Below, in pieces: positions 1-5,451 of a DNA stretch of 64,000 nucleotides. Position numbers and translations under genes: made by a program. Numbering within the stretch: position 1 is the first letter of the stretch; each line of letters begins with the position of its first letter. The DNA comes from an uncultured Candidatus Rokubacteria bacterium. GTDB lineage: Bacteria > Methylomirabilota > Methylomirabilia > Rokubacteriales > CSP1-6. The notes beneath the pieces are model-generated. The model saw only the letters and a list, made by a program, of their open reading frames with translations. It did no database searches and was not told the origin of the DNA. The stretch is taken from positions 864,001 to 928,000 of the forward strand of contig CAVWWD010000003.1 of assembly GCA_963758635.1 (NCBI GenBank), written 5' to 3'.

Positions 1-660
1 CGACAGGTCGCGCGCCTTCGCCAGCTCGAGCGTCTCCCGGGAGATCTGATCCCGCATGCGCGTCAGCATCCGCCCGAGGATCTCCTCGGGCGTCATCCCC
101 TTCACGAGCTGGTACGTGTCCGGGAACAGGTAGCCCTCCAGGCTCTCGGCCTCGACCCCCACGCTCCGGAGGAACGCGCGGTCGTGGGCCACGCGCAGGA
201 GGTCTTCGGCTGCGGCCACCCGCTCCGACTCGACGGCGCGGGCGAGCTCGACCAGCGTCCCGCCCTCGCGCAGCAGCACGGGATGGTGGAGCACCTTGCC
301 GCTCTCGAGCAGGCGCAGCACGGTCATGGTGGTCGCGCCCTGGGGAATCTCGTACTCGCCGGCCTTGAGGCTGCGGGCGCTGCCCCTCGCCCAGGCCAGG
401 ACCACGAAGCCGAGCCGGCTCCTGATCACACCTGCCTCGTCAAGGCGCTGGACCATCGTCAGGAGGCTGAGCCGGAGCGGGATGTCGACCACCCGGGGGC
501 TCGACTGCACGGTGGGAGAGGGGGTGAACGTCCACCATGCATGGAGAGCCACGAAGACGGCCGCGAGTGCGAGGAGGAGACGAACCGCCCTCCTCCACGT
601 CAGGCCAGGCCGAGCGCCGGGCTCGACGCGGGCCTTGAGGGTCCAGGGCCGATCCGTCAT
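1..660 (-). CDS. mltG: Endolytic transglycosylase MltG (YceG family), 3' end beyond window
   Basis: Not in the ORF track. Manual translation from ATG 660 gives an N-terminal TM helix, SLKAGEYEIP and SLEGYLFPDTY motifs typical of MltG; the frame runs off the window start. Confidence 0.9.
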   Translation of the reverse strand, partial: MTDRPWTLKARVEPGARPGLTWRRAVRLLLALAAVFVALHAWWTFTPSPTVQSSPRVVDIPLRLSLLTMVQRLDEAGVIRSRLGFVVLAWARGSARSLKAGEYEIPQGATTMTVLRLLESGKVLHHPVLLREGGTLVELARAVESERVAAAEDLLRVAHDRAFLRSVGVEAESLEGYLFPDTYQLVKGMTPEEILGRMLTRMRDQISRETLELAKARDLS

Positions 661-725
661 CGTTCGCGCTTACTTTGCCCGGACTTGGACGGTGAGTCAA
701 CTTCCCAAGCGCTCATCGGCCCCTC

Positions 726-734
726 TGTTATACT
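726..734 (+). promoter_or_regulatory. Extended -10 promoter for rpoA
   Basis: TGtTATACT about 45 nt upstream of ATG 780; SD GGAGG at 768-772. Confidence 0.6.
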
Positions 735-779
735 GTGTGGCCGGGGTCGTCGCCCCGCAATCTTCCTGGAGGAAATCAC

Positions 780-1787
780 ATGCCGCAGCTGCTGATGCCC
801 AACCGTCACGAGTGGCTGAGCGAGGATCGGGGATACGGCAAGCTCGCCGTCGAGCCGTTCGAGCCCGGTCTGGCCCTCACGGTGGGGAACGCGTATCGCC
901 GCGCCCTGCTGTCGTCCATCCACGGGGCGGCGCCGACCTGGGCGAAGATCGAGGGCGTCCTGCACGAGTTCTCGCACCTGCAGGGCATCACCGAGGACAC
1001 CCTGAACATCATCATGAACCTGCGGACGGTCGTGTTCGCGCTCCACGTGAACCGGCCGAAGATCTTGAGGCTCCGCGCCACGGGGCCTCGCACGGTGAAG
1101 GCGGGAGACTTCGAGCCCGACGCTGACGTGGACATCCTGACGCCGGACGTGATCGTGGCGGTGCTGGACAAGGACGGGTCGCTCGAGCTCGAGCTGTGCG
1201 TGGAGCGCGGGCGCGGCTACCAGGCCGCGGAGCGCCGCGAGCCGGAGGCCCTGCCCATCAACGCGATGCTCATCGACTCGGACTTCTCTCCCGTCAAGCG
1301 GGTCAACTTCCACGTGGAGTCGCCCCCGGGGGAGGCGCCCGCGCAGGAGCGGCTCGTCCTCGAGGTGTGGACCAACGGCAGCGTGACCCCCCAGGCCGCG
1401 GTGGCCGAGGCGTCCCGCATCCTCGAGGACCACTTCAGCCTGCTGAGCGACTTCCCGCAGCGGCCCGCGGAGGAGACGGAGCGCCGCGAGCCCGGCGCGG
1501 AGCCGCTGCCCAGGGTGGAGCTGAACGAGCACCTGTTCAGGAACGTCGACGAGCTGGAGCTGTCGGTGCGGGCGTCCAACTGCCTCAAGACCGCGAACAT
1601 CCGCACGATCGCCGACCTCGTCCAGAAGACGGAGTCGGAGCTCCTGAAGACGAAGAACTTCGGCAAGAAGTCCCTCAACGAGATCAAGACGATCCTGGGA
1701 GAGATGGGGCTCTCCCTGGGACTCCGTCTTGAGCCGGAAGAGCTGGAGCGGCTCCGCGCCCTGTACGAGCGCACGTTCGAGAGCTAG
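780..1787 (+). CDS. rpoA: RNA polymerase alpha subunit (stand-alone copy)
   Basis: [26 protein letters not shown] and FSPVKRV motifs; alpha-[18 protein letters not shown]...[11 protein letters not shown]. Start placed at ATG 780 after GGAGG. Confidence 0.96.
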
Positions 1788-1820
1788 GTCGGCCGCCCTC
1801 CCGCTTCCCGCGCGTCCCAT

Positions 1821-1849
1821 CACGGCCCCCGGCGACCCCGGGGGCCGTG
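1821..1849. terminator. GC-rich hairpin between convergent rpoA and PAP2 genes
   Basis: CACGGCCCCCGG-cgacc-CCGGGGGCCGTG, a 12-bp perfect stem with no clear U-tract. Confidence 0.5.
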
Positions 1850-1923
1850 GTGTGTCCGGGACCGGGTCAGGACGCGCCCCCGTCGTAGGGCGGCCCGCCG
1901 GGGCACGCCTGCCAAGCGGCGCG

Positions 1924-2973
1924 TCACCTCGCCGCCGGCCTCGCCTCGAGGGCCCCGAACGCCACCGCGAGCCGGCGCGGGTCGGAGGGCTGTCCGCGGC
2001 TCGCGCGGGCGAACCGGAACCGCAGCAGGTTCTCGTCGGGCCGAAGCGCCGGCGCGGGGAGCCTCACGTGATACTCGCTCCAGCCCCGATCCAGGAGCAG
2101 GCGTCCCGCGCGCGAGCCGTTGACCGACACTTCCACGTGCTGGCACGGCAGCTCGTCCTTGACCACGAAGGGTGCCAGCCGCAGCCGGAGGTCGTGATCG
2201 GACCGGCCGAGCGGCCCGATCCGGAGGACGGACTCGTCGCCCTCCGCCCACACGAACGGCGCCGCGCCGGCCCAGCGCTCGTCTCCCGACCAGCCGGAGA
2301 GCATCGCCGCCCGTCCCTCATGGCGGCCGAACGCGACGGTGGCCGCCGGCGGTCCGACGGCGGCGGCCGCATCGGCGCCGGTCCGTTGCGCCCCGAGGGT
2401 GCGCTCGTAGCTCACGAAGAAGGGCAACAGCAGCGCGGCGGCGCCGGCGGGGAGGACCCACAGCCAGCGCCACGCGGGACCGGGACTCTGCGGCGCGCCG
2501 GGCAGGGCCACGCGGGCGAGGAGGGCGCCGCTCACGGTTCCGAGCAGGGCGCCCCCGACGATGTCGATGGCGAAGTGGGCCTGCAGGTAGAGCCGGGCCG
2601 CCGCGGTGAGGACAGCGAGCAGGAACACCACGGGGCCCAGCCGCGGATAGGCCCGCGCGGCCACGGCGGCGAAGGCGAACGCGATGGTGGCATGGCCGGA
2701 CGGGAACCCGTAGCTCGACGCCGTGCTCGAGGGCCGCGGCGACTCCACCACCAGCTTCAGGACGTTGGCGAGGATCCCCGCGGCCACGACGCCCGCCAGC
2801 GCCACGACGCCGAGCCGGGCGAGACGACTCCGCCCCGTGGCGCGACCCGCCACGACGAGCCCGACGCTCAGCGCGCCCGCGACCGCGCCGTGTCCGAGCG
2901 CGCTCGCCGCCCGCATGACGTGGTACGCGCCCGGAACGGATGCGACCGCGCATCCGGCGTCGATCGGATCCAC
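1924..2973 (-). CDS. PAP2-family membrane phosphatase with C-terminal soluble domain
   Basis: Phosphatase motifs KLVVESPRP, FPSGHA and ARLYLQAHFAIDIVGG; several TM segments. Confidence 0.85.
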   Translation of the reverse strand: MDPIDAGCAVASVPGAYHVMRAASALGHGAVAGALSVGLVVAGRATGRSRLARLGVVALAGVVAAGILANVLKLVVESPRPSSTASSYGFPSGHATIAFAFAAVAARAYPRLGPVVFLLAVLTAAARLYLQAHFAIDIVGGALLGTVSGALLARVALPGAPQSPGPAWRWLWVLPAGAAALLLPFFVSYERTLGAQRTGADAAAAVGPPAATVAFGRHEGRAAMLSGWSGDERWAGAAPFVWAEGDESVLRIGPLGRSDHDLRLRLAPFVVKDELPCQHVEVSVNGSRAGRLLLDRGWSEYHVRLPAPALRPDENLLRFRFARASRGQPSDPRRLAVAFGALEARPAAR

Positions 2974-2990
2974 GCGCGGATTCTACTCCC

Positions 2991-5451
2991 TCACATCGGC
3001 GGCGCCTCCCCGTCCAGCGCGATCCGCTCCGTCGTGCGCGATCCCCAGCGCGTGACCCAGACGCTGACGCCGTCCGACTCCACGATCACCGCGCCATCGC
3101 GATCCGTCCGGTAGCACGCGCGCGCCCGCCGCTTGAAGCCGCGCGAGGGTCTCCGGGCGAGGGTGCTGGAAGGGGTTCCGGGCTCCCGCCGAGATCACCG
3201 CGAGCGTGGGTCGTGTGGCGGCCAGGAACGGCTCCGAGCTTCCGAAGCGGCTCCCGTGGTGCGCCACCTTCAGGACGAGGGCGGGGGCGGGGGGCCCGCG
3301 CGCGACGATCTCCTGCTCGGCCCGCCAGCCGATGTCCCCGGTGAAGAGGAGCGACACGCCGCGCCAGTCCAGCCGCATCACGAGCGAGGCGTCGTTCTCG
3401 CTGCGCGCGTCCACGTCGGTCCCAGCACGGCAACGGGCTTCGGCGTCGGGCCTTGCGCGGCCTCGTCGGCCGCGCGGGGCGCCGTGGGGTGGAGCATGGT
3501 GACGAGCGCGGATCCCATCTGGAGCCGCTGACCGGAGGCGAGCACCCGCCGGGGGGCGCCCGACGCGGCGATGGCCCGGAGCGTGTCCTCGGTTCCCTTG
3601 CCCCAGAGGCCGTTCTCCCAGAACTCCCCGACCCGGAAGTTGCGCGCGACGGCGGCGAGTCCTCCGGAGTGGTCGGGATCGGAGTGCGACACGACCACGG
3701 CGTGGAGGTGGGTGACCGGGCGGTTCCAGAGGAACGGGGCGAGGATGCGCTCTCCGACGTTGAAGCGCCCAGGGCCTCCGGGGCCGCCGTCCACCAGGAG
3801 CCGCTTCCCGTCGGGAAGCTCGACCAGGGCGGCGTCGCCCTGTCCCACGTCGAGGAAGGTCACCCGTAGCCGGCCGTCCGATGGTCGCACCCACGGCCAG
3901 AGCGTGAGCGCCAGCACCAGGAGCGCGAGGCTTCCCACCGCTGCGCGCACCGCGGCGCCGGCGCCGAGCCAGGGGAGGAGCGCGGCCGCGGCGTACCACG
4001 CGACCATGCCGAGCCAGTCGGGAGCGGGCAGGTGCACCATGGCCCACGGGACGCACGCGACCACCCAGACAGACGCCTTCAGCAGGACGACCACCAGCCA
4101 GACGAAGTTGAAGAGCGCGGAGGCGGCGAGGTCGCTGAGCAGCGAGAGCGTCAGGGCCAGGAGCCCGAGCGTGGTGACGGCGGCGGACAGCGGCACCACC
4201 ACGAGGTTGGCGACGACGCCGGCCAGCGAGAGCTGGTTGAAGTGCAGCAGCATCACCGGGGTGACCCCGGCCTGCGCGGCGAAGCTGACGGCGAGGCTGG
4301 CGGCGAGGATCCTCGGGCACCGCGCATGCGAAAGCGCGGCCGTGAGAGCGGGCGCCAGGTGGACGATGCCCGCCGTGGCGGCGAAGGAGAGGAGGAAGCC
4401 GGGGTCCCACAGGTCGCCCGGCCGCCAGGCGAGCACGGCGAGCGCGGCCAGGGAAAGCGCGTTCAGGAGCTGTGACTCGCGATCGAGCAGCACGCCGAGC
4501 AGCAGGGCGAGCCCCATGAGAGTGGCCCGCACCACGGACGGCTGGCCGCCCACGATCGACGCGAAGGCGATCAGGACGATGCCCGCCGCGACGGCGGTCG
4601 CGCGGCGAGGCAGCCGGGCCAGCGTGAGGACGAGGAAGACCGAGGACGCGAGGAGCGCCACGTTGAAGCCCGAGACGGCGAGCACGTGGTAGACGCCGGC
4701 GCGACGGAACGCCTCGTCGGTCTCGCGCGGGAGCCCACGGCGCTCGCCGAGGACGAGGCCGGCGAGCAGTGCCGCCGACCCCTCGGGCACGTGGCTGCCG
4801 ATGGTGGCGACGGCCCAGCGCTTCACCCGCACCGGCCACGGGGGCGCCTCCGGCGACAGCGGGGTCAGGCGATCGCCCCGGCCGCTCCCCACCAGGAGGA
4901 TGCCCTCGCGCCTCAGGTGGGCCGGGTAGTCGAAGGCCCCCGGGTTGCGGAAGCCGATCGGTCGATGGAGCGTGAGCTGCGCCGCGATCCGCTGGCCCGC
5001 GGCGAGCGGCGCCGTCTCGCCGAAGATCGTGACCTGCACCCGGCCCTCCGCCGGCCGCCGGCCTTCCGGCTCGATCAGCGCGTCGACGTCCAGGAGGAGT
5101 CGCGAGCGGTCCGGCGTCCACCGGATGGGCTCCTCGACGAGGACGCCTTCCACGCTCATGCGCGGGGACAGCGGCTGCATCACGAGGTGCTCGGGGAGAG
5201 GGCGGGGCGGGCGCGCCGCGCAGGGCGCCGAGTGTCGCGACGGCCCCCAGCAGGAGGGCGCTGGCCGTGCGTGACGCGCGCAGGCCGAGCGCGAGCGCGC
5301 CGGCGCCGAGCAGCGCGAGGGCGGCGCCAGAAACCCACGCGGAGGACAGCGGCAGCCAGGGCGTGGCGGCCAGGCCGGCCACGAAGGCGGCGGCCACCGG
5401 CAGCAGCGGAGCCGCGGCGAGGCGGCCTCGAATGCGTGGAGGAGGGCTCAC
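2991..5451 (-). CDS. comEC: Competence protein ComEC/Rec2 (frameshifted at about 5190, 3420 and 3112)
   Basis: Joined frames give GVYHVLAVSGFNV, FLDVGQGDA, SHSDPDHSGG, LFTGDI, LKVAHHGS and YRTDRDGAV; stop TGA at 2991-2993. Confidence 0.9.

Follow-up and report, generated by a model that had tools for sequence, protein, structure and literature searches.

The stand-alone rpoA gene and its surroundings

The window, a stretch of 64,000 nucleotides from an uncultured Candidatus Rokubacteria bacterium, carries a gene for the alpha subunit of RNA polymerase between two genes of the opposite strand. The features considered here are as follows:

1..660, minus strand: 5' part of mltG, the divergent neighbour, identified by a profile match; it adjoins rpoA at 87 of the 89 loci whose flanks are long enough and serves as an anchor of the locus, outside the mechanism proposed below
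726..734, plus strand: extended -10-like element TG-T-TATACT, without a recognisable -35, read from the sequence
768..773, plus strand: Shine-Dalgarno-like GGAGGA, 6 nt 5' of the ATG, read from the sequence; GGAGG or GGGGG lies upstream of the genes of relatives
780..1787, plus strand: stand-alone rpoA, 335 aa, from ORF translation, TIGR02027 match and AlphaFold2 fold; part of an order-wide clade
852-875, plus strand: EPFEPGLA, in place of the usual EPLERGFG, from the translation
897..902, plus strand: R40-R41 (E. coli R44-R45), retained by both paralogs, from the alignment
900-902, plus strand: codon of R41, the R45 equivalent, within NAYRR, from the translation
963..971, plus strand: HEF (E. 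coli H66-E67-Y68), in the beta-protected segment, retained by the stand-alone paralog only, from the alignment
1320..1349, plus strand: degenerate loop in place of the R191 loop (E. coli 189-199), from the alignment
1521..1733, plus strand: alpha C-terminal domain, with the equivalents of R265, N268, G296, K298 and S299 invariant, from the alignment
1563-1583, plus strand: SVRASNC, from the translation
1662-1673, plus strand: GKKS, from the translation
1818..1852, plus strand: 15-bp GC-rich hairpin 3' of the stop codon, without a U-tract, from folding (z = -2.5 for 1788-1870)
1924..2973, minus strand: PAP2-type phosphatase gene, the convergent neighbour, from a weak profile match below the cut-offs

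The product of the gene scored 319.7 bits over its full length against the RpoA model TIGR02027 (curated cut-off 227.8) and is thus a member of that family. Its AlphaFold2 model (mean pLDDT 76.7) contains the N-terminal and C-terminal domain folds of alpha, and the best matches listed by Foldseek for this model were RNA polymerase alpha chains (E about 1e-31). Chains A and B of PDB 6wmp, the Francisella RNA polymerase with its alpha1/alpha2 pair, were among the hits. An earlier, sequence-only reading of this DNA had quoted EPFEPGLA, NAYRR, the degenerate loop, SVRASNC and GKKS, and every one of them was located in ORF 780-1787. EPFEPGLA is present as described, but the L of EPGLA is mostly peculiar to this genome, with F in 91% of the stand-alone copies.

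Since both neighbours lie on the minus strand, mltG diverging and the PAP2-type gene converging, and neither rpsM, rpsK, rpsD nor rplQ adjoins, rpoA stands alone here, in agreement with that reading. The PAP2 neighbour it named is there, but it is local to this genome, being found at 1 of 45 loci, whereas 41 of the 45 have ComEC. The comEC region of the window itself (2983-5451) appears to change frame, and sequencing indels are the likely cause.

The gene was also said to have its own extended -10, and we observed the corresponding pattern, TGnTAnnnT, in the 90 nt that precede 66 of 91 stand-alone genes, compared with 4% of shuffled sequences; most of those shown among the remaining copies have TATAAT or TATACT. 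A sigma-70 scan gave 0 sites at the window rpoA because there is no -35. The 119-bp gap that holds the rpoA promoter also contains a -35-like TTGACT facing mltG (695-700, minus strand), with no good -10 after it. The downstream hairpin of the sequence-only reading is real, with 15 bp, but it is devoid of a U-tract and not general among relatives: a stem of at least 9 bp was found at its position in only 40 of 88, so it is not conserved order-wide. A terminator scan gave 0 terminator-like sites there, and the hairpin, which is not a textbook intrinsic terminator, is possibly a terminator or a stabiliser. Finally, contigs of four metatranscriptome runs from three studies cover the window rpoA, several with 0 mismatches over 150-250 bases; these contigs were retrieved with the window gene, one run also spans both neighbours, and DNA carry-over is possible, so that they are no proof of transcription.

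Two alpha genes in one bacterial order

By searching the genome with tblastn and PF01000 we found exactly two alpha genes, both on one 1.08-Mb contig. The second (G000:C3:374802-375785) encodes 327 aa, is 41% identical to the window alpha, lies in an rpsM-rpsK-rpsD-rpoA-rplQ operon and scores 283 bits against TIGR02027, also above the cut-off. The sequence-only reading had taken the window gene for a second alpha paralog, a claim that turned on whether another rpoA lies in the alpha operon. It does, and the window gene is therefore not the only rpoA of this genome. Contamination of the assembly is 0.5%, GC3 of the two rpoA copies is 0.96 and 0.95, and most of the closest named relatives among the matches listed bear the label Candidatus Rokubacteria or Methylomirabilota. 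The genome has one copy each of rpoB and rpoC; the 5' part of the former and the 3' part of the latter (L180, G000:C3:346000-357500) show apparent frame changes, likely sequencing indels.

In order to see how widespread the pair is, we counted PF01000 matches, which need not equal copy numbers, in 151 genomes of the phylum that are at least 85% complete, 110 of them in the order Rokubacteriales and 41 in sister orders. Two or more alpha matches were present in 92 of the 110 genomes of the order, one in 16 and none in 2. The sister orders gave one match in 38 of 41 genomes, none in 1 and two in 2, the latter being G061, probably mis-binned, and G127, with a separate duplication. Two non-identical rpoA genes thus occur throughout the lineage, as in Francisella, with G025 (see below) as an exception. 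The 16 genomes of the order with a single match split 8/8 between the two score classes, rpoB itself was missed in 12 of 41 relatives, and mltG lies at a contig end in G027 and G024; most of these cases therefore look like assembly loss.

Several further alpha genes were met in this survey. The second match of G061 (G061:C124, L257) lies in a Rokubacteriales-type operon with the same contig coordinates as in G090 (L259, G090:C191). That of G033 (G033:C358, L004) is a foreign-looking canonical alpha, probably mis-binned, and was left out of the groups. Extra stand-alone-type rpoA genes away from mltG (L252 and L254 in G146, L255 in G144, L256 in G090) are 77-83% identical to the resident copy. 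Some have changes in the C-terminal domain, the copy of G090 is split, and that of G144 lies on the same contig as the resident one.

Phylogenetic analysis across the lineage, proposed in the sequence-only reading as a check, returned two order-wide paralog clades from a single duplication. Each paralog forms a clade, and the two are joined in one with a support of 99 in a quick tree of 98 rows, 100/98 in a careful tree of 30 rows and 98 in a FastTree of 225 rows that included 127 added diverse alphas. Both paralogs share six residues that few or none of the outgroup alphas have (W16, A36, W58, A170, E199 and F228, E. coli numbering), of which E199 and F228 are frequent elsewhere among bacteria. 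AU tests, made on 30 N-terminal domains with groups chosen after the trees were seen, rejected a tree in which the stand-alone copy arises beside Nitrospira (p-AU 0.009), a position of G025 before the duplication (p-AU 0.002) and, less firmly, the duplicate of G127 (family f12) as a product of the same event (p-AU 0.023). The grouping of the two paralogs may still have been helped by long branches. By the trees and the AU tests, both go back to a single duplication at the base of Rokubacteriales, which is lineage-specific like that of Francisella. Both genes are under purifying selection (median dN/dS 0.10 for the stand-alone and 0.19 for the operon copy, 13 pairs), and their distances correlate (Spearman 0.86, 18 genomes), which points to parallel divergence.

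Contact motifs and the C-terminal domain

Here, E. coli RpoA served as the reference for an alignment of 94 stand-alone and 33 operon alphas with an outgroup of 31, of which 20 belong to sister orders and 11 are Nitrospira-type. Motifs played no part in defining the groups, for which gene context and overall identity were used, and L004, L089_2, L157 (wrong start) and exact duplicates were removed before the counts; 56 of the stand-alone rows were retrieved with the window protein as the query, and kin among the rows are not independent. The HE[FY] patch (E. coli 66-68) is present in 94/94 stand-alone, 1/33 operon and 31/31 outgroup alphas, and the canonical R191 loop in 0/94, 33/33 and 31/31, respectively. 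The two occur together, as in the canonical homodimeric alpha, in none of the stand-alone copies, in one operon copy and in the whole outgroup. The degenerate loop of the stand-alone copies differs among relatives in both length and sequence.

Positions at which the outgroup is invariant and agrees with E. coli fall into a similar pattern. The stand-alone copy alone retains F35, T57, H66, E67, S69, D77, D118, D120, L133 and I223; the operon copy alone retains L43, G63, L83, K86, R191 and D197. Within the operon group R191-L-G, D197, Y198, L83 and N84 are invariant and K86 is found in 94%, while the stand-alone copies have lost L43 and K86, and mostly L83, and retain R45, R150, G151, Y152 and D174 together with the DNA-binding residues. 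According to the footprinting data in excerpts of PMC3294249, residues 30-55 and 65-75 of E. coli alpha are protected by beta, and 175-185, 195-210, K86 and V173 relate to beta-prime. This assignment fits the main block of each of the two lists, whose numbers are too small for a test.

The sequence-only reading had argued for beta-side specialisation of the window alpha from its retained R45 equivalent, noting that the DNA-binding residues of the C-terminal domain are kept as well. Both observations were confirmed in the alignment. However, R44-R45 are retained in 94/94 stand-alone, 33/33 operon and 31/31 outgroup alphas, and we rejected R45 as a marker of specialisation; the argument from it does not discriminate, and it is the reciprocal loss of the HEF patch and the R191 loop that supports a beta-side role. 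The statement that R191 is needed for beta-prime assembly was slightly overstated, since E. coli R191C assembles with normal kinetics but yields an unstable enzyme, as described in a part of PMC8092217.

Among 127 diverse alphas (from 150 hits, filtered by less than 52% identity and by N-terminal coverage, and counted per alpha with genome copy number aside), 102 have both motifs, 15 are without the H66 patch and 14 without R191. Either loss alone is thus uncommon, not unique. With single losses in about a tenth of diverse alphas and an R191C subunit that assembles, a missing motif does not by itself prove that binding is lost. We also inspected the partner subunits at beta Y756, G874, T927, K1057 and E1083 and at beta-prime K370, W409, D410, D/E413 and E443, which we take to be the alpha-docking residues. 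They are conserved in the relatives examined (30 beta and 26 beta-prime loci), so that both sockets appear canonical, with each alpha apparently carrying only one plug. We found no open-access paper giving residue-level alpha-I/alpha-II contacts.

The C-terminal domain has diverged as well. Its mean identity is 0.93 among the stand-alone copies versus 0.72 among the full-length operon copies, which retain R265, G296 and K298, with E261, V264, C269 and K297 changed. It is absent in 12 of the 33 operon copies, namely every one of the 11 copies retrieved from family f4 and the single f3 copy (L039, L040, L048, L051, L054, L057, L058, L060-L063 and L073), where the gene ends at 237-255 aa directly at rplQ; in f4 the stop codon overlaps the rplQ start. 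Alpha C-terminal domain matches in the f4 genomes number one in 15 of 21, two in 2 (one foreign, one marginal) and none in 4. The least conserved part of the operon copy is domain 2 (identity 0.53 vs 0.73). The stand-alone alpha of f3 (L072, G026:C19), a genome in which the operon alpha is without a C-terminal domain, diverges from the family sequence near the end of that domain, probably by a frameshift.

Two lineages depart from the general pattern. G025, the sole and basal member of family f2 (73% complete), has a single alpha of the operon type, in which both motifs are present and the C-terminal domain is near-canonical; in place of rpoA, purA- and ruvX-like genes lie before its mltG (L065/L245, G025:C235; L243, G025:C406). 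Its stand-alone copy was either lost or lies on an unassembled piece. Since the tree puts G025 after the duplication, the split does not extend to every member of the order, and the G025 alpha with both motifs suggests that the loss of HEF from the operon copy came later than the duplication. In a sister order, both f12 genomes have a second alpha from a partial operon duplication, with HEF retained and the R191 loop lost (L089, G127:C3:120000-129500; L247/L249, G163:C126). The layout is rpsM-rpsD-rpoA-rplQ, an unrelated ORF, an rplF-like gene, rpsK and then the divergent second rpoA, which in G127 stands beside a complete alpha. As this duplicate groups with the sister orders (95/90), the same first step, loss of the beta-prime loop in one copy, appears to have occurred twice independently.

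A predicted oriented alpha heterodimer

From the reciprocal pattern we consider it likely that the two copies have been subfunctionalised into an oriented alpha heterodimer, with the window alpha on beta and the operon alpha on beta-prime, independently of Francisella. The window alpha would pair with the operon alpha through helices H1/H3 and recruit beta via R45 and the H66-E67-F68 patch; its R191 loop would have decayed once the need for it was gone. The operon alpha would hold beta-prime via K86, L83 and the R191-T196-D197 loop, with no further need of HEF. It retains R44/R45, through which the second alpha also contacts beta. Because the C-terminal domain of the operon copy is drifting and has been deleted in two families, most promoter and activator contacts would be handled by that of the window alpha. 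A minor homodimer may form alongside the heterodimer, since both copies retain R45 and the dimer helices and sequence alone leaves homodimers possible.

Those shared features, together with a separate locus that has its own conserved extended -10 and with C-terminal domains that differ, would also suit two alternative homodimeric cores, or freely mixed dimers, used by condition with the separate promoter as the switch. Such an idea was first raised for Francisella, where it was tested and the heterodimer dominated (PMC3294249, in part). In Rokubacteriales each homodimer would be without a motif that is present in all 31 outgroup single-copy alphas, while the sockets on beta and beta-prime are kept, and the losses are exactly reciprocal; we regard this arrangement as unlikely. 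The window type could also be the real housekeeping homodimer, with the operon copy a decaying or structural leftover held by the rplQ overlap: it scores higher than the operon type, evolves more slowly and always has the C-terminal domain that the operon copy can lose. However, the operon copy is intact in 33/33 cases, is under purifying selection and preserves R191-L-G, D197, Y198, L83, N84 and mostly K86, the very part that the window copy lost in 94/94, which makes a leftover decidedly improbable.

With a beta-facing patch, a highly conserved DNA-binding domain and no beta-prime loop, the window protein resembles a dominant-negative assembly trap, and extra diverged copies exist in a few genomes. 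It might then be not a core subunit but a regulator, e.g., a decoy on beta or DNA that titrates assembly or activators. The operon copy would in that case be the sole core alpha, yet it is without HEF in 32/33 and has no C-terminal domain in two families, and we give a regulator very little chance. Least credible is that the second rpoA came from misassembly or mis-binning, or was recently acquired by horizontal transfer. The genomes are metagenome-assembled, mis-binned rpoA contigs do occur (G033, G061), and outside the order Nitrospira gives the highest BLAST identity (52-56%); on the other hand, the location of both copies on one contig with low contamination and nearly equal GC3, the synteny with mltG, the congruent distances and the monophyly with the operon copy largely refute this explanation.

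The oriented heterodimer that we favour has a biochemically demonstrated counterpart in alpha1/alpha2 of Francisella (Mukhamedyarov et al. 2011, PMC3294249, in part), whose two different alphas the sequence-only reading had cited, and the Rokubacteriales pair likely works in the same manner without descent from it. Both lineages have two diverged rpoA paralogs, one in the ribosomal operon and one elsewhere, which arose by lineage-specific duplication and between which the beta and beta-prime contacts are divided, in our case as judged from sequence. The origin is separate and in another phylum: the Rokubacteriales copies form their own joint clade with single-copy sister orders, in trees made without Francisella sequences, and the Francisella alphas lie within gamma-proteobacteria (PMC3294249, in part). 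The division also differs. Francisella alpha2 has Gln for R45, whereas both Rokubacteriales copies keep R45 and are split by HEF versus the R191 loop. The operon copy is beta-side in Francisella and predicted to be beta-prime-side here, and loss of the C-terminal domain from one copy, in two families, is a feature of Rokubacteriales unlike Francisella.

An oriented heterodimer of alpha-like subunits, as predicted here, is also formed by archaeal Rpo3/Rpo11 (RpoD/RpoL) and by eukaryotic Rpb3/Rpb11 and AC40/AC19. In the Rpo3-Rpo11 pair the small partner is reduced to the dimerisation domain and is devoid of a bacterial C-terminal domain. The Rokubacteriales proteins, in contrast, are both bacterial-type alphas above the rpoA cut-off, and the inserted domain 2 remains in 33/33 operon copies and the C-terminal domain in most (21/33). 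In pairs of the archaeal and eukaryotic type it is the larger partner that faces the beta-like subunit, its counterpart being much smaller (excerpts of PMC13374769 and PMC3294249). Compared with the canonical E. coli RpoA homodimer (TIGR02027), the window alpha has the same fold and domain order but lies outside the alpha operon and is without the R191 loop, L43 and K86, and mostly L83, for which a second gene would be needed. Other rpoA duplications give two genes per genome likewise, but in few species (Chloroflexus spp., Streptomyces avermitilis) or as recent identical copies (Psychromonas ingrahamii, Leptospira borgpetersenii), as listed in part of PMC3294249; the excerpts of that paper describe no reciprocal motif loss for them, and their list does not include Rokubacteriales.

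The open literature, with subscription journals and supplements outside the scope of the search, gave no paper naming Rokubacteria together with rpoA. On paralogous rpoA pairs it yielded Francisella, a plastid study and a review of lactic acid bacteria, with nothing on this lineage, and a demonstration of the unlike-alpha arrangement was found in print for Francisella only. A 2026 review presents the alpha homodimer as the bacterial rule, with zero occurrences of 'Francisella' or 'rpoA'.

We lean, by a little, towards the view that Rokubacteriales independently repeated the transition from an alpha homodimer to an oriented heterodimer which lies behind archaeal Rpo3/Rpo11, with its stages preserved in living genomes. 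One copy would first lose the beta-prime loop while the other stays complete, which is the f12 state and is compatible with the operon alpha of G025; the operon copy would then lose the beta patch and, in f3 and f4, the C-terminal domain, so that a single alpha C-terminal domain would be fixed on the beta side. Such genomes would form a graded series for the possible rise of the archaeal and eukaryotic alpha-like pair. A predicted oriented heterodimer in a whole order of soil bacteria would moreover map, by natural variation, the alpha residues that serve beta apart from those that serve beta-prime, and would offer a natural way to test if a single alpha C-terminal domain suffices for UP-element and activator control. 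As a two-copy and fast-evolving gene, rpoA is unsafe as a single-copy marker in Rokubacteriales.
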